A stretch of DNA of 64,000 nucleotides from an uncultured Holophagales bacterium (lineage in GTDB: Bacteria; Acidobacteriota; Thermoanaerobaculia; Multivoradales; UBA5704). A program made the translations under genes and the position numbers. The notes beneath the pieces were generated by a model. It was not told the origin of the DNA and made no database searches. It saw nothing but the letters and a program-made list of their open reading frames with translations. This document shows positions 22,965 through 58,205 of this stretch, piece by piece. How positions within the stretch are numbered: the first letter of the stretch is position 1; each line of letters starts with the position of its first letter. The stretch is taken from positions 1,434,260 through 1,498,259 of the forward strand of contig CAVUHL010000003.1 of the NCBI GenBank assembly GCA_963741305.1, written 5' to 3'.

Positions 22965-22972
22965 GGAGAGCC

Positions 22973-23150: not shown

Positions 23151-23161
23151 CTTAAGACGGC

Positions 23162-33406: not shown

Positions 33407-33542
33407 TTTTTCCTGGGACCGCCGGCATCCTGCCGGCATTGTCCGGAGGAATCAGCCGGAACGGCCGACAATGCAAGAAGGACGGGCCTTCGGCCCGATG
33501 TCTCAAGAATGCCGGCAGGATGCCGGCGGTCCCAGGAAAAAA
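33407..33542. repeat. hairpin element: 34-bp perfect inverted repeat flanking a conserved AAGAAGGNCGGGCCTTCGGCCCNATGT core
   Basis: tttttcctgggaccgccggcatcctgccggcatt ... aatgccggcaggatgccggcggtcccaggaaaaaa; second family member at 58057-58160. Confidence 0.8.
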
Positions 33543-39529: not shown

Positions 39530-40125
39530 GGTGGACCCTATCGGTGATGCGACCAGGAGCTGCGCGCGCGAGACAAACCCATCGCCGTCGCGGCAATCCC
39601 CATTCTGCCGCGACTTTGCCTTAAGTCGCGTCAGAAAGACCCATGGTGCCGCGACTTCAGCCAAAGTCGCGTCACCACAGCCTATCGGTGCCGCGACGAA
39701 ACCTGGAGTCGCGTCAGCAAAAGGATTCGTGACGCGACTATACCCTTCGTCGCGTCACTGTAATTCATCGTCGCGTCACCAAAGCCTATAGTCGCGTCAC
39801 GAAGCTTATGGTCGCGTCAGAAAAGCCTTGAGTCGCGTCATCAATGCTTATGGTCGCGTCGGCAAAGTCTTGAGTCGCGGCAGGAAAACCCGTAGTCGCG
39901 TCGCGAAGCTTATCGCTGACGCGACGATGGGTTGGGTCGCGGCAAAAAAGTCCAGAGTCGCGTCGGCAAAGGCCGGAGTCGCGTCAAAATGCCTTTCGGC
40001 GGGACGCCGAAGCTCTTGCGGCAGACGGCGAAGCCTTGGGTCGCGGCAGAAATGGCCCGGGTCGCATCACGAGAGCTTCGCGCAAGGCGGCGAAGCGTTG
40101 AGTCGCGACAGAAAAGCTCGTTGGC
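39530..40125. repeat. tandem array of about 27 copies of a 21-bp unit with conserved core AGTCGCGTCA (consensus GTCGCGTCANNAAAGCNTTNN)
   Basis: gtcgcgtcaccaaagcctata gtcgcgtcacgaagcttatg gtcgcgtcagaaaagccttga gtcgcgtcatcaatgcttatg gtcgcgtcggcaaagtcttga ...; constant 21-bp period, variable 3' half. Confidence 0.85.
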
Positions 40126-45604: not shown

Positions 45605-45624
45605 CTGCTAAAGTCTCCCCATCG

Positions 45625-46440
45625 ATGAGAAAGATCGTCCTGATCGCTCTCGGGATTTTGGCCGCCTTCCTATTACTCCTGAACATGCTCGACGGTTTCG
45701 TTCGTCAATCCATCTATCCGGCCCCTCGGGTGAGGGTGCCTCCGGCTCCGGCGCCGCTGGAAGAGGTGGTCTTCGACCTCGCCACGGGTGAGCGGATCGT
45801 GGCCTGGGCCCACTCCGATCCGGCGCTGCCGCCCGGCCGGCCGGCGGTGGTTTTCTTCCATGGCAACGGGGAGAACCTGGAGACGATGAGGATGTCCGGG
45901 ACCTTCGACGAGCTCGCCCGGCTGCGGGTCGCCTGGATCGCCGTGGATTACCCGGGCTACGGCCGTTCCACCGGAGACCCATCCGAACAGGGGGTGATGG
46001 CGGGAGCTGACGCCGCGGTCGCTTGGCTGAGGGAGCGTCACCCCAGCCGGCCGCTGGTCCTCTGCGGCTGGTCGCTCGGCGCGGCAACGGCCATCGGCAC
46101 GGCGGCGCGGCATCCGGAGGAGCACATCCGCGGACTGATCGCCCTGAGCCCGTGGACCTCGCTGCCCGACGTGGCCCGCATCCACTTCCCCGGCATCATG
46201 GTCAAGTCGATCCTGAAGGAGAAGTACGACTCCCGGGCCGCGGCGAAGAAGGTCCGGGTGCCCTCTCTGGTGATCCACGGCGAGCTGGACAACCTGATCC
46301 CGGCGGAGCAGGGCAAGGAGGTCGCCGCCGCTCTCTCGGCGCGGTGGGTGCCTGTCCCCTCGGCCGGGCACAACGATCTGCTGGCCAAGGACGAGGTGTG
46401 GATGGAGATGGAGCGGTTTTTGGATGGGTTGGTGAAGTAG
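45625..46440 (+). CDS. alpha/beta-fold hydrolase
   Basis: N-terminal TM/signal, GWSLG nucleophile elbow, HG oxyanion motif (VVFFHGNGEN), C-terminal D/H. Confidence 0.7.
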   Translation: MRKIVLIALGILAAFLLLLNMLDGFVRQSIYPAPRVRVPPAPAPLEEVVFDLATGERIVAWAHSDPALPPGRPAVVFFHGNGENLETMRMSGTFDELARLRVAWIAVDYPGYGRSTGDPSEQGVMAGADAAVAWLRERHPSRPLVLCGWSLGAATAIGTAARHPEEHIRGLIALSPWTSLPDVARIHFPGIMVKSILKEKYDSRAAAKKVRVPSLVIHGELDNLIPAEQGKEVAAALSARWVPVPSAGHNDLLAKDEVWMEMERFLDGLVK

Positions 46441-46653
46441 CCCTCACCCCCGACCCCTCTCCCGGCCGCACACCCGGACCCCCGGGAGAGGGGAGGCCTC
46501 GAGATCCACCGGCGTCGCCATCCGTGGCTTGTAGCAGGGGATAACCTGGTTCACCAGCCACGTATGGCCACGTATGGCGATGACGCTGGATCTTGCGCGC
46601 CCCCCTCTCCCGGGGGTCCGGGTGTGCGGCTGGGAGAGGGGCTGGGGGTGAGG
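46441..46653. mobile_element. MITE-like element copy A (about 210 bp, 53-bp terminal inverted repeats)
   Basis: Left arm ccctcacccccgacccctctcccggccgcacacccggacccccgggagaggggag, right arm cccctctcccgggggtccgggtgtgcggctgggagaggggctgggggtgaggg; internal about 100 bp bounded by gagatccac / ggatct. Confidence 0.75.
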
Positions 46654-46656
46654 GTT

Positions 46657-47373
46657 TTACCCAACCAGCCGTAGCCCCGCCCGCACATACTCCCGCACCC
46701 GCTCCGAATCCAACCGGTCTTCCTCATCCCGCAGACAGGTCTCCGCGTCGAAGCTCAGCTCCGGGAACTCGGCGAGCAGAGGCTCGAGAAGGTGGAGGTT
46801 CGAGGCGCTCAGCCCTCCAGCCACGCCGAGCCCGAGCCCCGTGTCCGCCAAGGCGCGCAGGAAGGGGAGGAGGGCCGCGGGATCGAGCGGGCGGCCCTGG
46901 CCTCCGCTCGCGTCGAGGAGGAGATCATCGGCCAGGCCGGCGATCTCCCTCGCACGGCGGGCGGCTTCTTCCGGCGGGCCCGCCAGCATGCCGGCGTCCA
47001 TCTGGATCACGATCCGCAGCCCTCGGAGGGCCTCAAGATCGTCCCGCGAAGGCCAGACCCCGTTGATCTGGAAGCCGTGGAGGTTCGGCCCGCATCTCTC
47101 GGCCACAGCGGCGAGCTGGCGGCCGAGCGTGGCGGGCTCGTCGGTGTAGTAGTGGACGAGGTTGAGGGCGATCGGATGGTCCGGGAAGATCTCCGGGATC
47201 GCCTCCACCGTAGGAAGGCGCCTGGGGCTCCTCTCCGGCAGGCCCGCGCAGGTCCGCCGGCTCGCGAGCACGCCCACCATGAGGAGACGGCGCGAGGTGA
47301 GAGGGACGAGAGCGAGGGCCTCGCTCACCTGGGCCGCGGTGGTGAAGCCCGTCACTCCGATGTAGGGACTCAT
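46657..47373 (-). CDS. hypothetical protein, possibly phosphoribosylanthranilate-isomerase-like TIM barrel; last gene of cytochrome operon
   Basis: 238 aa; MSPYIGVTGF... N-terminus and Gly-rich phosphate-binding-like C-terminus; 4-nt overlap with upstream gene. Confidence 0.35.
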   Translation of the reverse strand: MSPYIGVTGFTTAAQVSEALALVPLTSRRLLMVGVLASRRTCAGLPERSPRRLPTVEAIPEIFPDHPIALNLVHYYTDEPATLGRQLAAVAERCGPNLHGFQINGVWPSRDDLEALRGLRIVIQMDAGMLAGPPEEAARRAREIAGLADDLLLDASGGQGRPLDPAALLPFLRALADTGLGLGVAGGLSASNLHLLEPLLAEFPELSFDAETCLRDEEDRLDSERVREYVRAGLRLVG

Positions 47374-48680
47374 GAACCTCCGAAGCGCACGCCGAGCTTC
47401 TTGAGGAAGTCGAACGGGGGGACGCCGCCGGCGAAGACGAAGACCCAGTCGTTGGGGAGCTCGACCTCCTGCTCCTTGACCTTGAGCTTGACGCGGCCGG
47501 GGCCGATCTCGACCGGCTGCGAGCCGAAGAGCGGCTTGACCTTGCCGGCGGCGAGGAGCGCGTCAAGGGCGTCCTGGTTCTTCTTCTTGAGCCGCACGAG
47601 CTTGTCCCGGCGATAGGAGAGGGTCACCACGTTTCCTGTCTGGCAGCTCAGGCCGATGGCGGCTTCCGCGGCGCTGTCCCCGCCTCCCACCACCAGGATT
47701 TTCTGTCCCCGGTACCCCTCGGCATCGATGAGACGATACATCACCTTCGACAGCTCCTCTCCGGGCACTCCGAGCTTGCGCGGCGTGCCGCGGCGGCCCA
47801 GGGCGAGCACGACCGCCCGCGTCCGGACTTCCTCCCCGCGCGCCGTGCGCAGGGTAAATATACCGTCCTCCTCTCTTTGCACTTCCCTCCGGATGTCAAT
47901 AACCGCCTCGCCGAAGCGCACATCCAGAGTGTGGTCGCGGACCAGCCCTTCGAAGAGATCGAGGAGGACTTCCTTGCTGTACTCCTCCCGGTCCAGCGCT
48001 CCCCAGGGCGGAAGCTCGACCTTTTGAGTGAGGACCATCTTGCGCCGCGGGTAATGGAGGAGGCTCCCGCCGAGAGTCTCCTCGCGCTCGAAGACGGCGT
48101 AGGAGAGGCCGGAGGTCGCGGCGGTGAGGCCGGCGCTCAGCCCGGCTGGTCCGGCTCCGACGATCGCGACATCCAGGATGCCGGGCGTCTTCTCGGTCCG
48201 TGGCAGATGCTCGATAACCCGGCGTCCCTGGAAAGCCGCGTTGCGGACGAGGGAGAGGCCGCCTAGCTCGCCTACGATGTAGATACCGGAGACGGTGGTC
48301 TGGTAATGATCGTCGAGGAGGGGAACGTCCTCCCTCGATTTGAGGTCGCCGAGGCCGACCTGGATGGCGCCGACCGGGCAGGCTTCTTCGCAGCGGCCAT
48401 GCCCCACACAGCGCAGGCCATTGACCACCACCGCCGTGCCCCCTACGACTCCGAGCACATCCCCCTCAGGGCAGGCTTTGACGCAGGCTCCGCAGCCGAT
48501 GCAGCGGCTCGGATCGATGTAGGGGAACTGGGCCGCGGGCTTGTCGATGCCCAGGGCCGCGGCTTCCTCCTTGCGCTCGCGGTCCAGCTTCACCCGCCGA
48601 CGGAAACGGAGCAGGTAGGGGAGGACGATCAGGCCCGCGATCAGGAGGGCCGCGCCCCAGACGAGGACCGGCTCCGTCAA
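47370..48680 (-). CDS. membrane-anchored FAD/NAD(P)-binding oxidoreductase with 4Fe-4S dicluster ferredoxin domain
   Basis: Probable TTG start overlapping upstream stop; N-terminal TM; two CxxCxxCxxxCP motifs (CIGCGACVKACPEG, CVGHGRCEEACPVG); GxGxxG dinucleotide motifs (VAIVGAGPAG, ILVVGGGDSAAE). Confidence 0.7.
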   Translation of the reverse strand: MTEPVLVWGAALLIAGLIVLPYLLRFRRRVKLDRERKEEAAALGIDKPAAQFPYIDPSRCIGCGACVKACPEGDVLGVVGGTAVVVNGLRCVGHGRCEEACPVGAIQVGLGDLKSREDVPLLDDHYQTTVSGIYIVGELGGLSLVRNAAFQGRRVIEHLPRTEKTPGILDVAIVGAGPAGLSAGLTAATSGLSYAVFEREETLGGSLLHYPRRKMVLTQKVELPPWGALDREEYSKEVLLDLFEGLVRDHTLDVRFGEAVIDIRREVQREEDGIFTLRTARGEEVRTRAVVLALGRRGTPRKLGVPGEELSKVMYRLIDAEGYRGQKILVVGGGDSAAEAAIGLSCQTGNVVTLSYRRDKLVRLKKKNQDALDALLAAGKVKPLFGSQPVEIGPGRVKLKVKEQEVELPNDWVFVFAGGVPPFDFLKKLGVRFGGS

Positions 48681-50428
48681 AATCGGTATCCCAGCCCCAG
48701 GGTCATGCGCTGCCCTTCGATCTCGTCTCCGGTGAGGACTTCCAGCTCGGCCTGGCCGAAGAGGTCCAACGGTAGCTCCAGCCAGAGCGAGGCGCGGGCC
48801 CATTGGGTGGTGGTCTCCTCGTCGACGAGCAGCGACTGCCGCGACAGGGTACCGCCCAGGCCGAGGCTCAGTTCGTGCCCGCCGCCGAAACGCCGGCCGA
48901 CCCGAGTGGTGACGAGCAGGCCGTCGGTGGTCGGATTGGTGAAGCCAAGCACGTCGGCGCCCACGAACAGCTTCAAGCCGGACAGCTCCGGGTGCCAGGC
49001 GCCCACGCCGAGGGAGAAGCTCGTCTCGGAGTCGGCGCCCTCGATCCCCTCATCGCGGGCATCCAGGGCATGCGCGCCCGCGGTCACGGAGAAGTTGAGC
49101 CCCCGCGCCGGACCGGTCTGATAGCTGACCCGCAGCCCCTGCCGCGTCAGGTCGTCGAACAGCTCCGTGGGGATGAAGCGGCTCTCCTCGGTGAGGAAGC
49201 GCTCGAAACGGTCGTAGGAGATCACCAGGCGGCTGCGCTCCGAAAGGCGACCCAGGGCGGTGAGCGAGAGTTGGGAGAGCTGCGAGGTGCTGCCGGCGGC
49301 CTCCTCCCTCCAGCCGGTGTTGAGGTCCAGCTCGGCGTGCTGAAAGAAGGTCCAGCGCTGGCCGGGGTCGTAACGGGTCTCGATGGCCACGAACTCGCGG
49401 CTGATGTCGGTCTCTCCCTCTTCGCGGACTCCGGCCACGAAAAGCTCGAGTCCGTTCGACTCCGGGGCGATGCGGACGAAGGCGCCGTACTTGGATCCGG
49501 AGCCGTCGAAGCCCAGCTCCTCGATGTTGGGCCGGCGGCCGTAGAAGCCGCCCACCTCGAGCGGTCCGAGGACGCGCACCTTGCCGAGGCCGCCATCCAG
49601 GTAGCCGATGCCCACGAACGGGCCAGCGCCGAGGCGGCCGACCCGGAAGCCATAGCGGGCGTCCTCCGGCTCATAGATCAAGGACAGCTCGTAGAGCCGG
49701 TCGCGGCTCGTGGATTCGGGAATGCCGCCGATACTGCTCACGAGCCGACGCTCGCGCTCCTCGTCGAGGCTGCGCATCCGGAGCCGGAGTTGGAGCGGAG
49801 TACCGACGATGTCCCGCACCCGCACGTTGAGCCGTGCGGCCGTGCGGTTGAAGTCGCGGCGGCTCTCGGTGCCATCCGAAAAGACCTCGCTCTCCAGGGA
49901 GACCGCGCCGGTCACGCGGGTCCGGGTTGGACGCGGGCTTTCCGTTCGCGGGATGGGCTTCTCGGTCCGAGGAGCTTCCGCCGGCGGGGGAGCAGGAACG
50001 GGAGCGGGAGCCGCCTCGCCGATCCGCCGCACGCGGTCATCCGCCTGGATTGCCTTGCGTTCGTTCAGGACGCGGCAGGAAGCCGAGTGCTCCGCCGTGA
50101 AGAGAACCTCGATCTCCGCGATGACTTCACTCCCGCGGACGACCTCCAGCCGGTCTCCCACCTCGATCCCCGAAGCCCGGCCATTGTTCAGATAAATCGT
50201 ATCCGCGGACCTGTAGCGCACCGCGAGGGGGTTCTGAGCCATCAACGGCACGGCAATCAGCAGGAAAATGTAGGGGCGGGTCTTGTGCCCGCCCGGGAGG
50301 GGGAAGATCCCGCTCCAAGATCCTGCCGAATTTCGTTCCCGGACGTTTCCCCCACCCGGGCGGGCACAAGACCCGCCCCTACAGACGAGGGCCACGAGAT
50401 GGACGAGATAAAAGAAGTGCCTTTTCAT
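48677..50428 (-). CDS. outer-membrane beta-barrel (porin-like) protein
   Basis: 583 aa, alternating amphipathic beta-strand pattern, C-terminal ...LGLGYRF (terminal Phe); N-terminal region reads through a REP palindrome so true start may lie near 50270. Confidence 0.55.
   Translation of the reverse strand: MKRHFFYLVHLVALVCRGGSCARPGGGNVRERNSAGSWSGIFPLPGGHKTRPYIFLLIAVPLMAQNPLAVRYRSADTIYLNNGRASGIEVGDRLEVVRGSEVIAEIEVLFTAEHSASCRVLNERKAIQADDRVRRIGEAAPAPVPAPPPAEAPRTEKPIPRTESPRPTRTRVTGAVSLESEVFSDGTESRRDFNRTAARLNVRVRDIVGTPLQLRLRMRSLDEERERRLVSSIGGIPESTSRDRLYELSLIYEPEDARYGFRVGRLGAGPFVGIGYLDGGLGKVRVLGPLEVGGFYGRRPNIEELGFDGSGSKYGAFVRIAPESNGLELFVAGVREEGETDISREFVAIETRYDPGQRWTFFQHAELDLNTGWREEAAGSTSQLSQLSLTALGRLSERSRLVISYDRFERFLTEESRFIPTELFDDLTRQGLRVSYQTGPARGLNFSVTAGAHALDARDEGIEGADSETSFSLGVGAWHPELSGLKLFVGADVLGFTNPTTDGLLVTTRVGRRFGGGHELSLGLGGTLSRQSLLVDEETTTQWARASLWLELPLDLFGQAELEVLTGDEIEGQRMTLGLGYRF
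50269..50390. repeat. REP-type palindrome (GTAGGGGCGGG ... CCCGCCCCTAC) with about 65-bp loop, inside 5' end of the beta-barrel ORF
   Basis: gtaggggcgggtcttgtgcccgcccgg ... ccgggcgggcacaagacccgcccctac; arms closely resemble the REP at 30302. Confidence 0.7.
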
Positions 50429-50430
50429 CT

Positions 50431-51300
50431 CTACTCCCTCCCCTGCGGATGGCAGGACAGACAGGCGTTGCTCTCATAGCGGTAGCCGCGGACGTCGTCG
50501 TCGTCGTGCTCCTCGTCCATCTCTCTCCGATTGTGCTCGTGGCAGTTGAGGCAGGAGAAATTCTGGAAGCTCCCCTGGTTGACCGACGTGTGGCAGTCCG
50601 AGCAACTGTTCCAGACCCCGCGGTGCGGGCCGGAGAAGATGGGGAAGAACCGCGCGTCGTGCGCCCGGAAGTCCGCGTCCGAGAAGTCCGAGGTGGTGTG
50701 ACAGGTCTCGCAAGTCGTCGGGAACCCGGAGCGGACGTGGTCGGGCTGCGCCCGGCGGTAATCCTCGGCGTGGCAGGAGAAGCAATCCATCGGCGTGCCG
50801 CGGAACTCGAAGGGCGGGCTCCCCCGGTGGCAGGAGCCGCAATCCACCGCCGCGTGGGCTCCGGTCAGCGGGAACAGGCTCGCGTTGTGGATCTCGAACA
50901 CCCGGCGCCGGCTGTCCCAGCCATGCGGCGAGTGGCAGCTCTCGCACGAGAGCCCCAACTCGCCCTGGTGCGGGTCGCGGTGGCAGTCCGCGCACGCCGA
51001 GGCCACGCGCTGGAACCGGAGATCCTGGTGGCACCCCAAGCAGGCGACCTTCTGGTGGCTCTTGATCAGGGCGAACCCGGTCTCCTTGCCATGATCGAAG
51101 GGCAGGGGCTCGCGCAGCGGGCGCCATCCCTCGGGGGAATGGCAGTGCTCGCAGCCCCAGCGCAACGGGCCATGCGGATTGCCGCCGGTGGTCTCCTGGC
51201 CCTGAGCCCGGCCTCGAGTCTGGCCCTGCGCCGTTCCCAGGATGGCTGCGGTCAGGAATCCGGCAGCCAGCAGGAGTTGTAGGAGCAGCCGTTTCTTCAT
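50431..51300 (-). CDS. decahaem c-type cytochrome (periplasmic/secreted)
   Basis: Signal peptide MKKRLLLQLLLAAGFLTAAILGTAQG; ten CxxCH motifs (CEHCH, CLGCH, CADCH, CESCH, CGSCH, CFSCH, CETCH, CSDCH, CLNCH, CLSCH) in 290 aa. Confidence 0.85.
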   Translation of the reverse strand: MKKRLLLQLLLAAGFLTAAILGTAQGQTRGRAQGQETTGGNPHGPLRWGCEHCHSPEGWRPLREPLPFDHGKETGFALIKSHQKVACLGCHQDLRFQRVASACADCHRDPHQGELGLSCESCHSPHGWDSRRRVFEIHNASLFPLTGAHAAVDCGSCHRGSPPFEFRGTPMDCFSCHAEDYRRAQPDHVRSGFPTTCETCHTTSDFSDADFRAHDARFFPIFSGPHRGVWNSCSDCHTSVNQGSFQNFSCLNCHEHNRREMDEEHDDDDVRGYRYESNACLSCHPQGRE

Positions 51301-52973
51301 GTGGTTCTCCCGTGACAACCTTCGCAGGTGATCGGAAGCGGTTTGAAGCGGACGACCCGGCCTTCAGATCGATGACACGCGCTACAGGGCAGGCGGGCGT
51401 GGGCTCCCACCAGCTTGAAGCGCGAGTGCCGGTCGTGATCGAACGTGACGCGGGCCCAGCTCTGCACCGAGTGGCACGATTGGCAGCCCGCCTGGACGAG
51501 CTGCCCCTCATGGGGATCGCCATGGCAGGCATTGCAGGCTTTGGGAGTGCCTTGAAACTTCCCCTGCTTGTGGCATTGGCCGCAGGACACCTTCTGATGC
51601 CCGCCTTCCAAGGGGAAGCCGGTCTTCGTGTGATCGAAGGCCGCGAGATGCGTCCAGCCCTCGATCGAGTGGCACGTCCGGCACCCCTGCGGACCCTGGA
51701 CGCGGCTCACCTGCCCTTTGTGGGGATCGCCGTGACAGGCCTGGCACTCGGTGGACTCCCACTTGAAGCGGATCACCCCGGAGGCGTTCTTCTTGTGACA
51801 GGAGATGCAGGGCACCGCGAGGTGAGCCCCCTGAAGAGGGAAGCGGGTCTTCTGGTGCCGCTCCAGGGGGAAGGTCGAGGGAGAGAAGCCCGACAGCGTG
51901 TGGCAGCTCTCGCAGGCCGAGCTTGCGATCTGTCCCGCGTGGACGTTCTTGTGACAATCCGCGCACGCCTGGAACTTTGCGAAGCGCAGGCTCCGGCCAG
52001 AGGTGTGGCAAGACTGGCAGCTCACCTTCTGATGCTGCCCGCGCAGGGGGAAGCGGGTCTTGTCGTGATCGAACTTTGCGCTGCTCCCCACCTTCCATCC
52101 GGCGGTGGAGTGGCACTGCTGGCAAGTCGTGCCGAGCCGCCCCTGGTGCGGGTCCTTGTGGCAATCGGTGCACCGCTGGTGCGCCAGCTTCGTGAACTTT
52201 CCCGATTTGTGACAGCTCGCGCAGGCCACGGCCTTGTGCTGGCCGGTGAGCGGGAAGCCGGTGCGGTCGTGATTGAAATTGGCCATGGCACCCGTCTTCC
52301 ACCCGGCAGTGGAGTGGCACTGCTGACAGGTAGCTCCGAAGCGTCCCTGGTGCGGGTCCTGGTGGCAGCTCGCGCAGCTCTGGTGCTGGATTCCCTTAAA
52401 CTGCCCGCTCGGGTGACAGCTCGCGCAAGCGACCTTCTGATGCAGTCCGGTGAGAGGAAAGACCGAATGGTCGAGCTTCGCAAGCGGCTTCCAAGCCACC
52501 GTCGTGTGGCAGGAGACGCAGGCCTTTTGAGCGAACTGGCCGCGGTGCTCGTCCCGGTGGCAGGAACGGCAGGTGGGGGAGAGCCCGAGAAAGGTTTTCT
52601 TCGGCGGACGGTGGCAGGACTGGCAAGCCTGCTTCGCGTGCGCTCCTTGCAGCGGCCATCCGGTCGAGCGGTGATCGAATCCAGCCTGTCCCTTCTTCCC
52701 CCAATCGATGAGCTTGAACTCCCGTCCGTGGTGCTCGATGTGGCAGGTCTGGCAGGCGCGGTACTCGGGCCGGGCGTGAAGCCGGCTGGACTTGATGGCG
52801 GTGTGGCAGTCGAGGCACTTCGAGGGCGCCACACCCTGGCCGGCCTGGTGGCACTTCAGGCAGTTGGCGCTCCCTTCCAGCTTGGCGTGCGGCTGGCTGA
52901 GCTTGCCGGGGGAGAGCTGGGCCGCGAGGGGGGCCGAAGCGAGGAACAGCGCCAGGATGATCCCCTTTCGCAT
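51297..52973 (-). CDS. large multihaem c-type cytochrome (about 23 CxxCH motifs)
   Basis: Signal peptide MRKGIILALFLASAPLAAQ; CxxCH repeated about every 22-25 residues through 558 aa. Confidence 0.85.
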   Translation of the reverse strand: MRKGIILALFLASAPLAAQLSPGKLSQPHAKLEGSANCLKCHQAGQGVAPSKCLDCHTAIKSSRLHARPEYRACQTCHIEHHGREFKLIDWGKKGQAGFDHRSTGWPLQGAHAKQACQSCHRPPKKTFLGLSPTCRSCHRDEHRGQFAQKACVSCHTTVAWKPLAKLDHSVFPLTGLHQKVACASCHPSGQFKGIQHQSCASCHQDPHQGRFGATCQQCHSTAGWKTGAMANFNHDRTGFPLTGQHKAVACASCHKSGKFTKLAHQRCTDCHKDPHQGRLGTTCQQCHSTAGWKVGSSAKFDHDKTRFPLRGQHQKVSCQSCHTSGRSLRFAKFQACADCHKNVHAGQIASSACESCHTLSGFSPSTFPLERHQKTRFPLQGAHLAVPCISCHKKNASGVIRFKWESTECQACHGDPHKGQVSRVQGPQGCRTCHSIEGWTHLAAFDHTKTGFPLEGGHQKVSCGQCHKQGKFQGTPKACNACHGDPHEGQLVQAGCQSCHSVQSWARVTFDHDRHSRFKLVGAHARLPCSACHRSEGRVVRFKPLPITCEGCHGRTT

Positions 52974-52974
52974 C

Positions 52975-53802
52975 CTATTGCCAGGCGTAGCCGGTCATGA
53001 TCGCGACCGCGATGTGGAGGATCATGAAGACGTACATCACGACCGCGAAGGGTTTGTGCAGGACGTGCCAGTGATGAAACAGCTCCTGAAGCCGGCTCCA
53101 CAGCAACAGCCGCCGCTGGAGGAGCGCCTTCTGGCGGATTGTCCGCAGCAGCTCGGCGGATCCCCGATGGCGGGACAATCGGTGGAACGAGCGCAGCCGC
53201 CAGCGCAGGCGGATCCCGTCCAGAGGCATGCGGAAGAGGGACGGCGACAGGTCCGCCGCGAGAGCCTCCAGCTCCTTGAGCGGCCCCTCTCCCAGCTCTT
53301 CTTTCAGCCGCAGGGAGAGCTCCGCATTCAGCTCCTCGACCTCCTTGAGGCTGAGCTGATCGCCGGCCCGCGTGCGTGGGATCTGGAGGTAGAGGTAGCG
53401 CCCAAGGACCCCCGAGAGCGCCACCACCACCATCGACCAGAAGCTGAGCGCCACCAGCCCGTGCACCTTGAACGAGCTGTGGAGCACCACCAGCAGCGGC
53501 CCGATCACGCCGCAGAAGATGTGGAAGTCGAGCCAGTCGCGGAGCTTGCCCGCGCCGCGTAGCGCCTTGGTCCGCTTGCGCACCGAGTAGACGAGCATCA
53601 CGACCATCAGCGACGAGCCCACGATGCCGAGCAGGTGCCCGCGCGAGCCGCCGGGCTTGAGCGTCCAATAGTCCTCGTGCCGCGGACGCTCGATCAGGGG
53701 GGTGCCGTAGTACGAGCTGCCCTCCCACGCGAGGACGGCAATGACCGCCAGCGCGGCGGCGTAGACCGTGGTCAGGACGAGCTTGCGGACGGGCAGCTTC
53801 AT
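52975..53802 (-). CDS. integral membrane protein with intramembrane histidines, putative dihaem cytochrome b (quinol-interacting)
   Basis: 5 TM helices with His in helices (DFHIF, VVLHSS, HHWHVLH, MILHIA); first gene of the cytochrome operon. Confidence 0.45.
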   Translation of the reverse strand: MKLPVRKLVLTTVYAAALAVIAVLAWEGSSYYGTPLIERPRHEDYWTLKPGGSRGHLLGIVGSSLMVVMLVYSVRKRTKALRGAGKLRDWLDFHIFCGVIGPLLVVLHSSFKVHGLVALSFWSMVVVALSGVLGRYLYLQIPRTRAGDQLSLKEVEELNAELSLRLKEELGEGPLKELEALAADLSPSLFRMPLDGIRLRWRLRSFHRLSRHRGSAELLRTIRQKALLQRRLLLWSRLQELFHHWHVLHKPFAVVMYVFMILHIAVAIMTGYAWQ

Positions 53803-53844
53803 ACCAATAGAGGTAAGACAGGCGCGGGGGGCGGTTTGGAACAG

Positions 53845-54054
53845 GCCTCACCCCCGGCCCCTCTCCCGGCCGCACACCCGGACCCCCGGGAGAGGGGAGC
53901 GCGCGAGATCCACAGACATCGCCATATATCGCTCGCCCGGTAGAAACCCGGTCCTGCTGTGGACAAGCCACTTATGGAGTTGCGGTTGGATCTGGAGGCC
54001 TCCCCTCTCCCGGGGGTCCGGGTGTGCGGCGGGAGAGGGGCTGGGGGTGAGGGG
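53845..54054. mobile_element. MITE-like element copy B (internal segment inverted relative to copies A and C)
   Basis: Same 53-bp terminal inverted repeats; internal gcgcgcgagatccac...ggatctggaggcc is reverse complement arrangement of copy A. Confidence 0.75.
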
Positions 54055-54092
54055 CCGCGGAAGGTCCGGTCTAAACCAGGTCTAAACCGGAC

Positions 54093-54488
54093 CTAAACCG
54101 GCTTCGGAGCCCACGCGTGGAAGAAGCTGACGATCTCGGCCACGGAGAGCAGCGCATTGGCATTCCGGAACTCGCCGTCCGTCTGCGCCTTGACGAGCGT
54201 GCCATCGGGCTCCAAGATCGCAATCGCCGGGATGCCGCGCACGACGTCCATGCCGTAGTCGGCCATGATGTCGAGGTTCTGGTTGCGGTTGCCCACCGTG
54301 ATCTTCACCACGATGTAGCTCGGTTCGAGGATGGGCGTGACGAGCCGGTGGGTGAGCGCCCGGTTCAGGGCGTAGCAGTCGGGGCACCAGTCGGCGCCGA
54401 ACACGACCGCCACGCGCTTGCCCTCCCTACCGGCAAGCTTCAAGGCGGCGTCGATGGCCGCGTGGGCATCGGCCTCGTAATCGTTCAT
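54093..54488 (-). CDS. thioredoxin-fold protein (WCPDC active site)
   Basis: CxxC motif WCPDC about 40 residues from N-terminus, length 131 aa. Confidence 0.7.
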   Translation of the reverse strand: MNDYEADAHAAIDAALKLAGREGKRVAVVFGADWCPDCYALNRALTHRLVTPILEPSYIVVKITVGNRNQNLDIMADYGMDVVRGIPAIAILEPDGTLVKAQTDGEFRNANALLSVAEIVSFFHAWAPKPV

Positions 54489-54502
54489 GCTGTCTTCCTC
54501 CC

Positions 54503-55411
54503 TCATTCATAGGATCGGATGGTGGCCAGGGTCAGGCGCCCGGCCCAGTCCAGGGTCTCCGGAGTGACTTTCTCCGGAGTATCCAAAGGTGAATGATAGG
54601 ACGGTTCGACGCCGGTCCAAAGCCAGCCCGTCTCGATCCCCCGGCTGGCGAAGGGCACGGAGTCCGAGATCTGGGGGGTGAAATGCTCCCGCACAGGCAC
54701 GCCGAGCCCGCTGGCGAGGCCGAGCATCCGCTGGTGGACGCCGCGCTTCATGTTGATGCGAAGGGTGGAGAGAAGAGCATCCCCGCGGCCGATCATGTCC
54801 AGGTTGATCATGGACACGAGGTTGCGCGCCGCCTCGGGAGAGAGGCTCTGGGCATAGTACCGGGAGCCGACGACGGACTGTTGCTGAGGCCCGGGCCGCC
54901 CCTCCTCGGCCCCGAACGCCACGAACACCACCGGCAGCCGGGCAGGGCGAGCCGCCAGCACCCGGGCCAGCTCCAGGAGGACCGCCACACCCGAAGCGTT
55001 GTCATTGGCCCCCGGGCTCCCCACGACCGTGTCGTAGTGCGCGCCGACCAGGAGGTAGCGGTCCACCGCCGGATCGAATTCCGGGCCGGAGGGCAGAGCC
55101 ACGACATTGGCGGAATCCCCGCCGCCGGGAAGGGGCACCGGCTGGCGCTCGACCCGGTAGCCCGCCGCCGCCAGGGCCTTTTCGACATAGGCCGCAGCGC
55201 GAGCCTCCGCAGGGCTGCCGGTGGGCCGGGGACCTGACGCGAGCGCCCGCAGGTGGGCCATGGCCTTTTGGAGGTCGATCGCCTCCCCTTGGACACGCAC
55301 CACGGGCCGGGGGGTTGGGGGCGGCGGGGGCTCAGGCTGCTCGCGGCAGGCGGCGAGCAGCAGGGAGACCGTTAGGACGGAAACCCATCGCTTGGACAGG
55401 GCGGAGAGCAT
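54503..55411 (-). CDS. M28-family zinc aminopeptidase lipoprotein
   Basis: Lipobox LLAAC; HxD...D...EE...H metal-ligand pattern (GAHYDTV, NDNASGVAVLLE, GAEEGRPG). Confidence 0.75.
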   Translation of the reverse strand: MLSALSKRWVSVLTVSLLLAACREQPEPPPPPTPRPVVRVQGEAIDLQKAMAHLRALASGPRPTGSPAEARAAAYVEKALAAAGYRVERQPVPLPGGGDSANVVALPSGPEFDPAVDRYLLVGAHYDTVVGSPGANDNASGVAVLLELARVLAARPARLPVVFVAFGAEEGRPGPQQQSVVGSRYYAQSLSPEAARNLVSMINLDMIGRGDALLSTLRINMKRGVHQRMLGLASGLGVPVREHFTPQISDSVPFASRGIETGWLWTGVEPSYHSPLDTPEKVTPETLDWAGRLTLATIRSYE

Positions 55412-55435
55412 TGGGGACAGTTTACCCGCGGAAGG

Positions 55436-55639
55436 CCCTCACCCCCGGCCCCTCTCCCATCCGCACACCCGGGCCCCCGGGAGAGGGGAGGCCTCTAGAT
55501 CCAGCTTCCATCTCCACCTGCGGCTTGCCCTGTCTCGTTTCTCCGGGCGAGCCCCGTACGGTGATGTCGGTGGATCTCGCGCGCCCCCCTCTCCCGGGGG
55601 TCCGGGTGTGCGGCCGGGAGAGGGGTTGGGGGTGAGGGC
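55436..55639. mobile_element. MITE-like element copy C
   Basis: Same terminal inverted repeats (cccctctcccatccgcacacccgggcccccgggagagggg ... cccctctcccgggggtccgggtgtgcggccgggagagggg), internal ggcctctagatcc...ggtggatctcgcgcgc. Confidence 0.75.
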
Positions 55640-55677
55640 CGGTAACTTCCCCCACCCACTTCCGTAAACTACCCCTG

Positions 55678-57759
55678 ATGAAGATTCGCACCCAGCTCGT
55701 CCTGGCCTTCCTGCTGCTCTCCGTATTACCCCTCACCGGGATCGTCCTCTACTCCTACGCCTCCTCCCAGCGGGCCGTGCGCAAGGTGGTGGAGGCCGAG
55801 GCCGAGGAGCTGACGCAGCAGATGAACGGCCGCATGTCCACGATCCGGGCGGAGCTGGGGCGCAGCGCCGAGCGGGTGGGCGAGATGCAGATGGCCTCGC
55901 TGCTGGATCGGCAGACGGAGGAGGAGCTGGAGAAGGATTTCCCCGAAGTGCTCCGGGCCATGGGCGAATCGGCTTCCCTGGTGGACTCCCTGGAATTCAC
56001 GCCGTCCGTGCCCGCCGCCCCGCCCGCGCCTTCAGCAAAAGCTCCTCCCGCTCCCGAGCTTCCCACTCCCCGCGTGTCCGGCGACCCGACAGCTCTTCCC
56101 GCTTCGCCTGCTCCGCCCGCCCCGCCGCCGATGGTCATCGACGTCCGGGAGATCCTGGCAGAAGTCGAGAGGGCCCATGGAGAGGTCGGAGCCATCCAGG
56201 ACGACCCGGAGATCCAGCGGGTGATCGAGCAGGCGAACCGGATCGCAGCCGAGGCGGTGGCTGGCGGCCGGGTCATCGTCCACTCGACGCCGGAAATGCC
56301 GGACACGTCTGAGAAAAGGGCGGAGCTGGAGAGGAAGGTTCGCCAGGCCGAGGCGCGCAACCGGGAGCTGGAGGCCCGGCTCGAGAAGCAGCGCAGGGAG
56401 ACCCGTCTCCTCATCGGCAAGGACATCGGGGCCCCGGTCAAGGAAGAGGGAGGGCGCGTGGTCGGCTGGGTCCGCGTCCAGGTCCGTCCCGAGGAGATCC
56501 TCAGCCGGGTGCTCGGAAGGACCCAACGCGAGCGAGGGGAGATCCCGTTCGCCGTCGACGCCGAGGGCAACGTCCACACCGCGAACGAGGAAGACCTGCA
56601 GAAGATCAAGGCCCTCCCGATCACCCGGAGCCTGGTCGATTCCTCCCGGCAGATCCTCGACGGCTGGGTCGTCGTGACCTCCAACAAGGACGAAGAGAGC
56701 GGGCTCACCCTCGGCGTGGCGCGGCCGATCCGGCAATCCCTCGAAGAGCTCAGGCGCACCGCGGCGCGCAACTTCGGCTACGGCCTGGCCCTGATCGCCT
56801 TCGCCCTGGTTGGCATCCTGCCGCTGTCGAACCGGATGACCCGGGACGTGGGCGTCCTGCAGCAGGGCGCGGAGCGGATCGCGCAAGGGGACCTGGCGAC
56901 GCGGGTCTCCGTGCGGTCGCGCAACGAGATCGGCGCCCTGGCCACGGCGTTCAACCGCATGGCCGGGGACCTGCGCACCAACCAGGAGAAGCTCGTCGAG
57001 CAGGAGACCGAGCAGCGCCTCCTGCGCAGCGAGTACGAGCGCAAGACCCGCGAGCTGGAAGAGGCCCGCACCTTCCAGCTCTCCCTCCTGCCCAAGACCC
57101 TGCCCGCCCATCCGCGCTTCGAGATCGCCGTCTCCATGCAGACCGCGACCGAGGTCGGAGGCGACTACTACGACTTCCACCTGTCCGAGGACGGCATCCT
57201 GACCACCGCGGTGGGGGATGCCACGGGGCACGGCGCCCGGGCCGGGACGATGGTGACGGTGGTGAAGAGCCTGTTCTCCGCCGACTCCGGAAGGTCCGCG
57301 CCGAGGGACTTCCTGGCCGAGGCCGCCGTGGCCGTGAAGCGCATGGAGCTGGAGCGGATGGCCATGAGCCTGACCCTCGCCCGCATGGATGGGAAGACCC
57401 TCACGCTAGCCGCCGCCGGCATGCCCCCCGCCCTGCTGTACCGCGCCGCATCCCAAGAGGTGGAAGAGATCGCCCTGGAGGGGATGCCGCTGGGCGGTCT
57501 CGCCTACGACTACCAGGAGCTGAGCCTGAAAGTGGCCTCTGGAGACACTCTGCTCCTGATGAGCGACGGTCTCCCCGAGCTGCAGGACGAGCAGGGCGAG
57601 CCCTTCGGCTATCCCCGGGTGCGCCAGGGCTTCCAGGAGCTGGGAAGCTGGACTCCGGAAGAGATCATCGCCGGTCTGGGTGACGCAGCGCGCACCTGGA
57701 CCGGCGGAAAACCCCCCAACGACGACGTGACGTTCGTAGTGCTGCGCTTTAGAGCGTAG
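55678..57759 (+). CDS. membrane sensor with HAMP domain and PP2C-type (SpoIIE/RsbU-like) serine phosphatase domain
   Basis: Two TM helices flanking periplasmic region, HAMP (LQQGAERIAQGDLATRVSVRSRNEIGALATAFNRMAGDL), coiled coil, PP2C motifs (GGDYYDF, GDATGHG, SDGLPE, NDDVT). Confidence 0.8.
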   Translation: MKIRTQLVLAFLLLSVLPLTGIVLYSYASSQRAVRKVVEAEAEELTQQMNGRMSTIRAELGRSAERVGEMQMASLLDRQTEEELEKDFPEVLRAMGESASLVDSLEFTPSVPAAPPAPSAKAPPAPELPTPRVSGDPTALPASPAPPAPPPMVIDVREILAEVERAHGEVGAIQDDPEIQRVIEQANRIAAEAVAGGRVIVHSTPEMPDTSEKRAELERKVRQAEARNRELEARLEKQRRETRLLIGKDIGAPVKEEGGRVVGWVRVQVRPEEILSRVLGRTQRERGEIPFAVDAEGNVHTANEEDLQKIKALPITRSLVDSSRQILDGWVVVTSNKDEESGLTLGVARPIRQSLEELRRTAARNFGYGLALIAFALVGILPLSNRMTRDVGVLQQGAERIAQGDLATRVSVRSRNEIGALATAFNRMAGDLRTNQEKLVEQETEQRLLRSEYERKTRELEEARTFQLSLLPKTLPAHPRFEIAVSMQTATEVGGDYYDFHLSEDGILTTAVGDATGHGARAGTMVTVVKSLFSADSGRSAPRDFLAEAAVAVKRMELERMAMSLTLARMDGKTLTLAAAGMPPALLYRAASQEVEEIALEGMPLGGLAYDYQELSLKVASGDTLLLMSDGLPELQDEQGEPFGYPRVRQGFQELGSWTPEEIIAGLGDAARTWTGGKPPNDDVTFVVLRFRA

Positions 57760-57769
57760 GCAGCGAGCG

Positions 57770-58045
57770 GGGCGGGCTCCGCCCCACTTGGGGGAGCATC
57801 CGCCCTAAATGGGGCGGCGTCCGCCCCGTATGGGGGAGCGATTGCCCCACATGGGGCGAGAGTCGCCCAAAAAAGGGCGAACGCTCCCCCAAGTGGGGGA
57901 GTTACTCCCCCAGCTAGGGCGATGACTGCCCCACATGGGGCGAGCGTTGCCCCATCTGGGGGGAGAGCTCCCCTTTTTGGGGCGGACGTTCCCCCATCTG
58001 GGGCGGACGCTGCCCCACAAAGGGCGAAGACCGCCCCAGATTCCC
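57770..58045. repeat. tandem array of about 13 copies of a 21-bp unit, each containing a GCCCC-N4-GGGGC mini-hairpin
   Basis: ccgccccacttgggggagcat ccgccctaaatggggcggcgt ccgccccgtatgggggagcgat tgccccacatggggcgagagt cgcccaaaaaagggcgaacgct ...; strict 21-bp phase. Confidence 0.85.
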
Positions 58046-58056
58046 GAGCTACTCCC

Positions 58057-58160
58057 CTGGGAGCGCCGGCGTCTCGCCGGCCCACGCTCCCCGCCCCCGA
58101 AGAAGGTCGGGCCTTCGGCCCAATGTTTTTTAGGAAGCCGGCGAGACGCCAGCGCTCCCA
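58057..58160. repeat. hairpin element, second member of the GGGCCTTCGGCCC-core family; includes probable intrinsic terminator for the PP2C gene
   Basis: 25-bp inverted repeat ctgggagcgccggcgtctcgccggc / gccggcgagacgccagcgctcccag flanking cgaagaaggtcgggccttcggcccaatgttttttagg. Confidence 0.75.
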
Positions 58161-58205
58161 GGGGGCTCGCGCGAGCAGAGGAGGAGGGCCGATGCGCGTG
58201 ATATC

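Follow-up and report, generated by a model that had tools for sequence, protein, structure and literature searches.

Repeats of the BoxC/PIT/triplex-motif type have been reported since the 1990s and are found in hundreds of bacterial genomes; the BoxC and PIT (potential intrastrand triplex) repeats of E. coli and other bacteria were reportedly described by Bachellier et al. in the 1990s and by Hoyne et al. in 2000. To our knowledge neither an origin nor a mobility enzyme has been named for them. For two other kinds of repeat, REPs and the TIRs of 'TIRtrons', Y1 HUH tyrosine transposases are the presumed movers, and cognate REPs normally flank their RAYT. The DUF559 family, in the Vsr-like branch of the PD-(D/E)XK nucleases, is very large and its members are small; as far as we know, hardly any function has been assigned to them. 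Holder et al. (2015) tied triplex motifs to local rearrangement and did not find mobility genes nearby (PMC4666352). A DUF559 protein of Caulobacter has been tied to a cytosine methyltransferase, with Vsr-type mismatch repair, not mobility, as the proposed role (PMC12907096).

The 64-kb stretch of DNA analysed here (the window) contains three repeat copies, A, B and C, of 203-214 bp (Table 1), each within 1-2 nt of the position given in a preliminary description, which had called them MITE-like elements with self-palindromic terminal arms. A 52-nt arm pattern gave five matches with three or fewer mismatches in the window, where none is expected (100 shuffles). The sixth arm, at the right of copy B, is set apart by its 1-nt deletion, and the left arm of the same copy begins with G, not C. 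Each arm does form a hairpin by itself, with a 12-bp stem and an unpaired 13-nt tail in DNA folding (dG -16.6 to -16.8, z -3.4 to -4.3). With folding programs that consider Watson-Crick pairs only, whole copies A, B and C give one hairpin of about 100 bp each (RNA MFE -172 to -194 kcal/mol, z about -14.6), implying that the element is a near full-length palindrome, beyond TIRs flanking an unrelated core. Pairwise identity among the copies is 78-82% overall and 62-71% in the interiors, which are bounded, as described before, by GAGATCCA/TGGATCT boxes. The interior of copy B may be inverted relative to the others, as had been claimed; identity shows a weak preference for the opposite orientation (69-71%, versus 62% for the same one), in keeping with the AGGCCTC/GCGCGC markers.

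Table 1. Positions of the repeat copies, their neighbouring genes and the RAYT-like gene in the window.
Feature	Position	Strand	Remarks
RAYT-like gene	2271-3191	-	Pfam Y1_Tnp 2.8e-7; NCBIfam REP_Tyr_transpos 2.7e-18
Alpha/beta-hydrolase gene	45556-46440	+	TAG stop immediately before copy A
Copy A, 214 bp	46441-46654		left arm 46441-46493, interior 46494-46601, right arm 46602-46654
238-aa ORF	46657-47373	-	its stop adjoins copy A
First gene of multihaem cytochrome operon	52975-53802	-	copy B 42 nt upstream
Copy B, 209 bp	53845-54053		left arm 53845-53897, interior 53898-54001, right arm 54002-54053
Thioredoxin-like gene	54093-54506	-	copy B downstream
M28 peptidase gene	54503-55411	-	diverges from phosphatase gene across copy C
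Copy C left flank (M28 gene leader)	55412-55435		CATTGGGGACAGTTTACCCGCGGAAGG
Copy C, 203 bp	55436-55638		left arm 55436-55488, interior 55489-55585, right arm 55586-55638
HAMP-SpoIIE phosphatase gene	55678-57759	+	other side of copy C

Comparison with the neighbouring genes places all three copies in intergenic DNA. Copy A adjoins the stop codons of two convergent genes, copy B separates the thioredoxin-like gene from the leading gene of the cytochrome operon, and copy C makes up 203 of the 266 bp that separate two divergent start codons. The possibility had been raised that copy B supplies a promoter or terminator to the operon; no sigma-70 promoter or intrinsic-terminator consensus was found in or beside copies A, B and C. 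The flanks of copy C are related to each other: CATTGGGGACAGTTTACCCGCGGAAGG, on the left, is by direct reading an inverted, imperfect copy of the flank on the right (55639-55680, ...CTTCCGTAAACTACCCCTGATG), and this sequence is missing at the empty site of the relative L046. Copy A presents a similar case, with GGTTGGTGAAGTAG ending at the element versus the reverse complement of TTTTACCCAACC, which begins at its other end. An inverted duplication of flanking DNA thus appears to have accompanied copy C and, similarly, copy A. The elements also produce spurious ORFs (...PLSRPHTRTPGRGE...) and wrongly called gene starts, for example the M28 start in the relative L044.

On its G-rich strand the arm consists of CCCCTCTCCC, a 20-nt loop, GGGAGAGGGG, 3 nt and GGGGTGAGGG. 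The three 10-nt segments are invariant across 68 arms, with variation only at loop positions 12, 13, 24, 25, 30 and 32, a pattern subject to ascertainment bias at arm positions 26-53, which are partly set by the search pattern itself. The arm contains a 9-nt C-rich stem, the G-rich complement of this stem and a mirrored G-rich block (CCCTCNCCC...GGGNGAGGG N3 GGGNGAGGG), and a generic Y-R-R mirror-repeat detector recovered 6/6 arms together with one other match in the window. The stems match those of E. coli TMECO type B, CCCTCTCCCTGTGGGAGAGGGCCGGGGTGAGGGC (Table 1 of PMC4666352). As in the BoxC/PIT/TMECO class, the repeats are intergenic, lie on either strand, form inverted pairs and have stems more conserved than loops. 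The first loop, of about 20 nt with a 3-bp mini-stem, exceeds the 3-6 nt of the class, so the arm is a variant rather than a canonical member. By sequence, the 53-nt arm counts among the BoxC/PIT/TMECO triplex motifs, with a long loop. That this class is known and is not a MITE class (PMC4666352) speaks against a plain MITE terminus.

Arms occur at 42 loci in eight other Acidobacteriota MAGs, where they are 94-100% identical, and also in metagenomes, which argues for a dispersed family and settles against local duplication, the reading that the preliminary description had kept in reserve. Occupancy varies among relatives. At the site of copy C, L046 has no element and L044 has an unrelated palindrome, the site of copy A in L043 holds a different palindrome with only the terminal CTGGGGGTGAGGG left, and L024 is empty (955-968) where L029 is occupied. 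The L043 ortholog of copy C (9774-9976) is 97.5% identical, and that of copy B (11339-11545) is 90.4% identical when inverted and 78.8% when collinear (interior 59% collinear). Arms are conserved at every orthologous site examined, with 207 of 212 arm positions identical between the window and L043, whereas third codon positions in the genes nearby reach 82-89%. Some arms stand alone, and others are linked to different repeat modules or embedded in longer palindromes. A check for target-site duplications (TSDs) was negative: a direct flanking repeat of at least 2 nt is absent in 18 of 23 complete elements, the longest being 3 nt, and such repeats are commoner at random positions (35%) than at elements. 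The conserved flank, RG...CY, is an inverted, not a direct, repeat. Copies A, B and C are old and mutually divergent, hence recent movement is not seen in this genome.

A longer, gene-carrying relative with the same termini exists outside the window. In this element of about 577 bp, the arms and the same subterminal GCGCGAGATCC box surround a 115-aa ORF that encodes a DUF559 protein (Pfam PF04480, E 1e-38, 131.9 bits against a cut-off of 20.6) and matches the DUF559 structure PDB 3HRL (E 3e-19). A profile of 34 DUF559 sequences, all with D51, E62 and H68 and nearly all with D64, also matches the homing endonuclease I-Bth0305I (3R3P, 2.9e-5). The ORF is under purifying selection (dN/dS 0.08-0.17 at dS 0.4-1.7), and its flanking arms are 94-100% identical. 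The arm-ORF-arm unit occurs in at least four sequence-verified contexts (L024/L015/L047/L048, L006, L128 and L129/L130), between which homology stops exactly at the arm tips; P0111 adds a fifth neighbourhood on gene order only. The window copies retain 67-73 nt from each end of the 577-bp unit. Their common arms and subterminal box imply that the copies of about 205 bp relate to the DUF559 element as a REPIN does to its RAYT locus or a MITE to its IS. At the level of sequence, the doublets are gene-less forms of this element.

The association between motif and nuclease extends beyond these genomes. A triplex-motif pattern lies no more than 200 nt from the ORF in 55 of 78 distant DUF559 loci (41-58% aa identity) and occurs on both sides in 26, at a density of 2.83/kb near the ORF versus 0.34/kb farther off. 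These genomes are motif-rich everywhere, and the enrichment is smaller once restricted to intergenic DNA, where the motif occurs in 48 of 95 DUF559-adjacent versus 3 of 16 non-adjacent regions (p = 0.028, with a small control). An unrelated soil lineage carries a 410-440-bp motif-plus-DUF559 unit, 89-93% identical, in at least five contexts, with homology running from the motif edge. Other lineages have the motif in reversed orientation relative to the DUF559 gene, which fits independent modules as well as fixed termini. The E. coli gene ycjD is followed by a motif at 165 nt, and a motif remnant overlaps its stop codon. TMECO counts are 1-2 in B2 strains versus 19-30 in A/B1/C strains (supplement of PMC4666352), and ycjD is present in A/B1/C, with eefRABCD in its place in other phylogroups (PMC12817139). 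This correlation between TMECO count and ycjD presence, drawn from literature only and confounded by phylogeny, is suggestive.

We give roughly even credence to the view that copies A, B and C represent REPIN-like, non-autonomous doublets belonging to a triplex-motif element associated with DUF559, and we infer that the DUF559 nuclease mobilises them. In the proposed mechanism, nuclease from one or a few master copies would bind the structured arm, either as a hairpin plus mirror-repeat tail or as a doublet-extruded cruciform, and nick the conserved boundary between RG and CCCTCACC. Host replication or repair would then resolve the break, by which the unit would be copied or moved to an intergenic site without a TSD, sometimes carrying along or inverting a few flanking bases. 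Resident copies would keep near-invariant arms and a drifting interior, the palindromy of which may be upheld via exchange between its halves and which may flip by arm-arm recombination. The effect on neighbouring genes is probably that of a large symmetric DNA or RNA hairpin, independent of orientation, rather than that of a promoter or terminator. We know of no biochemical activity of DUF559 proteins on such DNA, nor of transposition by a nuclease of about 115 aa alone.

A more tentative proposal, possible though short of an even chance, is that BoxC/PIT/triplex repeats in general are the cis ends of widespread small elements, with DUF559 as the trans nuclease that creates, moves or maintains them. 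We found no paper linking DUF559 with triplex repeats. If the proposal is true, the system would be a nuclease-based counterpart of REPIN-RAYT, with the window doublets as non-autonomous members of its acidobacterial branch. Two orphans would then account for one another, DUF559 on one side and, on the other, BoxC/PIT/TMECO repeats, which are abundant, extremely conserved and tied to local genome instability, and near which their most detailed study reports no mobility function. From the physical link comes a hypothesis, open to testing, on the making and upkeep of the repeats; it would place a new, non-transposase class of enzyme behind REP-like genome 'symbionts'.

A different assignment of roles, in which a Y1 HUH tyrosine transposase of the RAYT/TIRYT type mobilises the arms and DUF559 is cargo or a hitch-hiker, appears unlikely. 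The window itself encodes a RAYT-like protein, one of a 306-aa family conserved in Thermoanaerobaculia, but the protein's NCBIfam score of 66 bits does not reach the curated cut-off of 80. Neither an arm within 4 kb nor a flanking inverted repeat accompanies the RAYT-like gene in the window or in three relatives, two of them arm-rich MAGs, and 621 kb of arm- or DUF559-containing loci yielded no further Y1-like ORF. The arm tail GGGGTGAG fits the GGGGWSAS shared by acidobacterial TIRYT TIRs (Di Nocera et al., PMC3733652), yet the GTAG/CGTC tag is absent at either arm end and the 53-nt arm is longer than the tagged 20-40-nt unit. Two inverted hairpin-forming units in many copies at orthologous sites, the missing TSD and long-term vertical persistence are REPIN-like; between the arms of every full-length copy, however, lies DUF559 and not Y1.

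We regard as rather improbable a reading of the doublets as targets, into whose palindrome centre a free-standing, homing-type DUF559 gene enters, the doublets being spread by host processes such as fork stalling, template switching and recombination at triplex or hairpin DNA. The ORF does sit at a palindrome centre between imperfect inverted ends of about 98 nt, and the DUF559 profile detects a homing endonuclease. Homing, however, requires a homologous empty allele and one specific conserved target, whereas the full-length unit occupies at least four unrelated intergenic contexts. The rearrangement that Holder et al. tie to the motifs without mobility genes (PMC4666352), the inverted flank duplications, palindromes exceeding the arms in some loci and the different palindromes at the same sites in relatives all agree with host-driven spread. 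Template switching nevertheless leaves unexplained the spread of 53 nt to dozens of unrelated intergenic sites with sharp boundaries between RG and CCCTCACC, as well as arm identity of 94-100% across species.

The notion that the copies are now-immobile host elements kept for a cis function (protein binding, mRNA 3'-end protection, attenuation or supercoil/cruciform control), with a merely historical DUF559 link, is improbable; the interior of copy B, for one, evolves neutrally and has been inverted. Copy C, conserved at 97.5% against a neutral expectation of about 85%, spans the control region of two divergent genes, copy A adjoins two stop codons, and the arms are conserved at the orthologous sites examined. 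Sites that are empty or hold unrelated palindromes in relatives (86-89% M28 protein identity) nonetheless mark the elements as dispensable, and no promoter or terminator consensus was found; E. coli PIT elements, too, are without promoter or terminator activity in the passage of PMC4666352 that cites this. A classical MITE, namely a deletion derivative of a DDE-transposase IS moved by cut-and-paste with a TSD, is scarcely credible, for although size, long terminal inverted repeats, intergenic multi-copy spread and presence/absence polymorphism agree with it, it is already contradicted by the TSD test on 23 elements, and no locus has a transposase ORF between arms, solo arms and mosaic combinations occur, and the longer relative encodes DUF559 only.

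In comparison with known systems, the DUF559-associated doublets share with MITEs a short non-coding, multi-copy, intergenic unit with TIRs and a longer coding relative with the same ends. The name MITE-like thus holds for their form and fails for the TSD and the transposase partner, neither of which was found, and the arms, unlike MITE ends, also occur alone or inside longer palindromes. The nuclease shares the D...E-x-D...H core with Vsr, I-Bth0305I (3R3P) and 3HRL. Its ORF differs in lying outside any intron or intein and in having no methyltransferase gene next to it in the loci read. Any target that it has would be a structured repeat, in place of a conserved gene or T:G mismatch.

Compared by description, TIRtrons/TIRYTs (Di Nocera et al. 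2013, PMC3733652) likewise have acidobacterial hosts, the GGGGWSAS motif and long, partly self-complementary TIRs in moderately abundant families with dimers; unlike these and class 3 TnpA-Y1 (Quentin et al. 2018, PMC6006769), no examined locus has a Y1 gene beside or between the arms. With the E. coli BoxC/PIT/TMECO repeats the arm has in common the segment order (C-rich stem, loop, G-rich stem, 3-nt loop and mirror G-rich stem), near-identical stems (CCCTCTCCC / GGGAGAGGG / GGGTGAGGG), loops variable against conserved stems, a strictly intergenic location, frequent inverted doublets and rearrangement-prone loci without a transposase nearby. It differs in a first loop of 20 nt (GGGGGTCCGGGTGTGCGGCC) rather than 3-6 nt, so that the published pattern would miss it, in an acidobacterial rather than proteobacterial or cyanobacterial host, and in doublets with a conserved-to-variable palindromic interior of about 100 nt; the DUF559 link is also absent from the BoxC/PIT/TMECO study, which has no mention of ycjD or endonuclease (PMC4666352). 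With REPIN-RAYT (Bertels & Rainey 2011, PMC3116915; PMC3337134) the likeness lies in inverted hairpin doublets that form a long hairpin without a TSD, in an enzyme gene of low copy number that the repeat of the many gene-less copies also flanks, and in persistence at orthologous sites across species. The unit here is 53 nt (doublet about 205 bp) versus 20-40 nt (about 100 bp), and the gene it flanks encodes a PD-(D/E)XK/Vsr-like DUF559 nuclease in place of a Y1 HUH transposase.

Direct reading of the three stretches showed an arm-bounded copy at each of the places named in the preliminary description. The 52-nt arm given there found five matches at up to 3 mismatches against none expected, the sixth arm carrying a 1-nt deletion, and the further claim that each arm is a hairpin by itself holds as well, folding of single arms giving a 12-bp stem with a 13-nt tail left unpaired. 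Each whole copy folds into one hairpin of ~100 bp (RNA MFE -172 to -194 kcal/mol, z about -14.6). Hence inverted symmetry spans almost the whole element; in copy A it was measured as 88-nt arms at 86%. Pairwise identity among copies A, B and C is 78-82% overall and 62-71% in the interiors, and they are not recent duplicates of one another. Copy B had been described as carrying its interior in reverse. The markers beside the GAGATCCA box (AGGCCTC vs GCGCGC) do group A+ with C+ and B-, but, the interior being a palindrome too, identity differs little from one orientation to the other.

Positions and settings of the window copies, of the gene-carrying relatives and of other features in the window
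Feature	Position or locus	Setting or description
Copy A	46441-46654	flanked by the stop codons of a convergent gene pair
Copy B	53845-54053	a thioredoxin-like gene on one side, a cluster of five multihaem cytochrome/ferredoxin-oxidoreductase genes on the other
Copy C	55436-55638	occupies 203 of the 266 bp separating two divergent start codons
Arm-ORF-arm, context 1	L024, L015, L047, L048 (one orthologous site)	beside an 838-aa gene
Arm-ORF-arm, context 2	L006	beside a 648-aa ORF
Arm-ORF-arm, context 3	L128	beside an ABC-transporter gene
Arm-ORF-arm, context 4	L129/L130	beside a DUF2281 gene
DUF559 protein P0111		between PIG-L and DUF2255 genes, seen from gene neighbours alone, not DNA
RAYT-like gene	2271-3191 (-)	Y1 HUH transposase, 306 aa
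Tandem duplication, ~401 bp	1594-2393	two units, 89-92% identical; overlaps the 3' end of the RAYT-like gene
Paralogous segments, ~3.9 kb	9660-17386	two, adjoining, 82-92% identical; internal ~123-126-nt periodic repeats
Acido-Lenti-1 RNA (Rfam RF01687)	22969-23017 (-), 23107-23152 (+)	two inverted matches, 49 and 61.7 bits
Palindrome, 32-nt arms	23030-23094	between the Acido-Lenti-1 matches
Palindromic repeat cluster	57782-58173, 33407-33541	CCCCACNTGGGGCG-type units at 57782-58040; CTGGGAGCGCCGGC...GCCGGC family at 58045-58173 and 33407-33541
Array of a ~21-nt unit	39662-40048	contains AGTCGCGTCA; at least 9 copies, orientation partly alternating, lower-GC; resembles an iteron or binding-site array
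Cytochrome/ferredoxin-oxidoreductase cluster	47370-53802	five genes
Palindrome, 37-nt arms	50269-50383	TGTAGGGGCGGG... type, 97% complementary, within the cytochrome cluster
Tandem 138-nt units	62265-63539	nine, 62-79% identical, probably coding repeats

The arms are dispersed well beyond the window, in keeping with the mobility that the preliminary description had implied. A scan of one genome per species found a 27-base arm core at 42 loci in eight Acidobacteriota MAGs (1-14 in each), which are labelled Thermoanaerobaculia or Holophagales. Rfam at gathering thresholds placed no family over the element (at permissive E-values only generic microRNA-hairpin matches) and the plasmids and viral contigs searched gave 0 matches. 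Whole-arm BLAST recovered 68 ungapped arms comprising 27 distinct sequences, variable only at positions 12, 13, 24, 25, 30 and 32; positions 26-53 were partly fixed by the search pattern, and positions 1-25 and all partner arms, which were free, are conserved equally. The outer boundary is sharp: a G precedes the arm in 54 of 65 distinct flanks, with a purine one base further out in 61 of 65, so the ends read RG|CCCTCACC...GGTGAGGG|CY. Target-site duplications are absent: 18 of the 23 complete elements lack a flanking direct repeat, and flanking repeats are fewer than at random positions. The label 'MITE-like' was a fair first description, but the tests that define a MITE came out against it. 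Arms also occur as solo copies, inside outward-extending palindromes (GGCGTCCGYGGCCTGCGG|arm) and fused to the CTGGGAGCGCCGGC... family, which is present twice in the window; in other MAGs this family is fused to solo 53-nt arms at L004, L011, L014, L018, L027, L033 and L038.

The window holds other palindromic repeats. Its two Acido-Lenti-1 matches and the palindrome between them make up a ~190-bp palindromic doublet, which suggests that the Acido-Lenti-1 'sRNA' motif here belongs to a dispersed palindromic repeat rather than being a gene of its own. The GAGATCCA box was considered as a module common to that palindrome and rejected as too weak (9 matches vs 2.8 expected, with 1 of 100 shuffles reaching 9).

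Orthologous sites in relatives show presence and absence of the copies. Over 11 kb the window and the JGI contig L043 are syntenic (90.4% DNA identity), and copy C of L043 is 97.5% identical (5 differences in 204), compared with 82-89% at third codon positions of neighbouring genes. Copy B has been inverted in place: the arms are 94-100% identical in L043, the interior is only 59% identical when collinear, and the whole element reaches 90.4% in inverted orientation, so that the inversion took in either the interior alone or the entire element. The four orthologous arms agree at 207 of 212 positions; they are under constraint, and the interior of copy B drifts at about the neutral rate. Site A in L043 holds another palindrome, with the last 13 nt of the arm as the sole remainder. 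That replacement is of the same TGTAGGGGCGGG... type as the 37-nt-arm palindrome within the cytochrome cluster, which is 89.7% identical to L043 inverted and 79.8% collinear and seems, like copy B, to have flipped in place.

Copy C lies between the M28 peptidase and SpoIIE genes. M28 homologues of up to 91% identity occur in soil metagenomes and in MAGs of Thermoanaerobaculia, the acidobacterial class to which the window's organism belongs, and an exact-protein look-up of two window genes flanking the element recorded neither. Site C in the relative L046 (M28 identity 86%) is empty and reads GGAAGTTCC|TTTATCCTTCCCGGAATG. In the relative L044 (M28 identity 89%) an unrelated palindrome of ~105 nt, built of CAAGGACA-like units, stands at 9936-10045, exactly at the position of copy C; as a result the publicly annotated M28 gene begins ~100 nt too early. 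A second empty and occupied pair, its junction read by eye, is L024:955-968 vs L029:6234-6478. Read by eye, one host flank of the element at site C, and likewise at site A, repeats the opposite flank in imperfect inverted form, and the inverted flank sequence is missing from the empty site. We infer that the host flanks at these two sites may have been imperfectly inverted-duplicated.

The cytochrome cluster is present in the window and L043 and missing from L044 and L046. In L044 the interval bounded by these thioredoxin-like and hydrolase genes contains a 114-aa gene, and in L046 that 114-aa gene together with a copper amine oxidase; downstream of the thioredoxin-like gene, at the spot of copy B, L046 has yet another palindrome. 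A composite transposon around the cytochrome operon, with copies A and B as its ends, was rejected, the 238-aa gene beside A being shared with operon-less L046 (86% aa identity), which leaves only copy B at a boundary of the variable segment. A promoter or terminator role for the copies was rejected, as no sigma-70-type promoter or intrinsic-terminator consensus was found in or beside any of the three.

Some arm pairs lie 552-578 bp apart with a conserved 115-aa ORF between them. The ORF is DUF559 (Pfam PF04480, 131.9 bits, E 1e-38; PDB 3HRL 'endonuclease-like protein', E 3e-19), and a profile of 34 such proteins further matched 3R3P (2.9e-5), the Vsr-like homing endonuclease from a mobile group I intron, and PvuRts1I. 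All 34 sequences have D51, E62 and H68, and nearly all have D64. Between copies of the gene dN/dS is 0.08-0.17 at dS 0.4-1.7 with adjoining arms still 94-100% identical; the gene is therefore functional, and its copies are old. The unit is found intact in several contexts, and in all four read as DNA homology ends at the arm tips. Furthermore, the window copies keep 67-73 nt from each end of the unit, including the GCGCGAGATCC box, and hence the ~205-bp copies correspond to both ends of a DUF559 element minus the gene. Either an element lost its gene through internal deletion or the gene inserted into the middle of a doublet; both histories fit the sequence.

DUF559 genes often adjoin triplex motifs in other lineages as well. 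A metagenome scan with the DUF559 alignment gave 80 loci, of which the closest two (94% and 87% aa identity) have full arms. A generic three-block motif detector, which in the 64-kb window returned the six arms and one other match, was applied to the other 78 (41-58% identity). It called a motif no more than 200 nt from the ORF in 55 of them, and one on each side in 26, at a density of 2.83/kb near the ORF vs 0.34/kb farther off, and many of the pairs around distant DUF559 genes are clear inverted repeats. The genomes carrying these loci are motif-rich in general, and the contrast is weaker in intergenic regions alone (48 of 95 DUF559-adjacent vs 3 of 16 non-adjacent, p = 0.028, with a small control set). 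The strongest support for a general link is a 410-440-bp unit of an unrelated soil lineage, comprising an E. coli-type motif and a DUF559 gene, which is 89-93% identical in at least five contexts with homology beginning at the motif's outer edge. Five of the 80 metagenomic ORFs (L058, L082, L088, L101 and L109) contain in-frame stop codons; these copies are decaying, as expected for a family that includes selfish or dispensable members.

Y1 HUH transposases are the usual explanation for REP-like repeats, and one of them might mobilise the arms, possibly in trans. The arm tail fits the GGGGWSAS shared by the TIRs of acidobacterial 'TIRtrons' (Di Nocera et al., PMC3733652), and the RAYT-like gene of the window is the sole phmmer match to E. 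coli RayT in the 621 kb searched (Pfam Y1_Tnp 2.8e-7; NCBIfam REP_Tyr_transpos 2.7e-18, 66 bits vs a cut-off of 80). However, in the window this gene has no arm within 4 kb and no flanking inverted repeat, and the same holds in three relatives, of which two come from arm-rich MAGs; the explanation is weakened accordingly. The 306-aa protein family, highly conserved in Thermoanaerobaculia, numbers 1,910 homologues at E <1e-30; among the relatives homology comprises the gene plus about 50-190 nt in differing contexts, and no cognate repeat was found. A regex for HUH/Y motifs gave 0 matches in the loci, the same regex being blind to the window Y1 gene that phmmer detected.

We therefore regard the window copies as very probably gene-less doublets of a DUF559-associated, BoxC-type element. 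That DUF559 is the enzyme that mobilises or maintains it is a tentative proposal, to which we give slightly less than an even chance; the identity and the enzyme's role, stated together, we judge evenly balanced. The nuclease would recognise the structured arm and nick at RG|CCCTCACC, and host repair or replication would then copy or relocate the unit. Exchange between the two halves would keep the interiors palindromic and might sometimes push the symmetry into the flanks.

The E. coli K-12 DUF559 gene ycjD (L127, NC_000913 1351200-1351830) has CCCCTCACCCTAACCCTCTCCCCAGAGGGGCGAGGGG 165 nt downstream. A motif remnant lies over its stop codon and encodes the last codons, with a duplicated 3' gene fragment between the remnant and the downstream motif. 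Across 5,426 E. coli genomes the 56-nt stretch is found at 16 places per genome at the median. This motif is the BoxC, PIT or 'TMECO' repeat of Holder et al. 2015 (PMC4666352), published as CCCTCNCCC N3-6 GGGNGAGGG N3 GGGNGAGGG. In MG1655 there are 23 copies, always intergenic and in inverted pairs at five sites; the loops are less conserved than the stems, the loci are rearranged more between strains than control loci, and transposases or integrases were 'never found' nearby (PMC4666352). Counts are 19-30 in phylogroups A, B1 and C and 1-2 in B2 (PMC4666352 supplement), and in A, B1 and C ycjD stands in place of the eefRABCD efflux operon (PMC12817139). B2 lacks ycjD, and Salmonella lacks the motif.

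The unexpected part of our data is the consistent physical link of such repeats to DUF559 endonuclease genes. Full-text literature searches, incomplete in coverage so that a prior description is possible, returned no paper tying triplex repeats to this family. If the link is causal, it would assign an enzyme to repeats that have been without one for three decades, and a role to a very large protein family of unknown function.

Read along the G-rich strand, the window arm is CCCCTCTCCC-[GGGGGTCCGGGTGTGCGGCC]-GGGAGAGGGG-YYG-GGGGTGAGGG. It shares all three stems and the short second loop with E. coli type B, its first loop is expanded to 20 nt (published 3-6), and the variable positions among the 68 arms coincide exactly with loop positions. 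The arm is thus a variant of this known repeat class and, because of its loop length, no canonical member. In the soil-lineage unit the hairpin is outermost with the tail toward the gene, the reverse of the acidobacterial arrangement. Among the BoxC/PIT triplex-motif repeats, the element of the window is an acidobacterial variant with a long loop and REPIN-like organisation.
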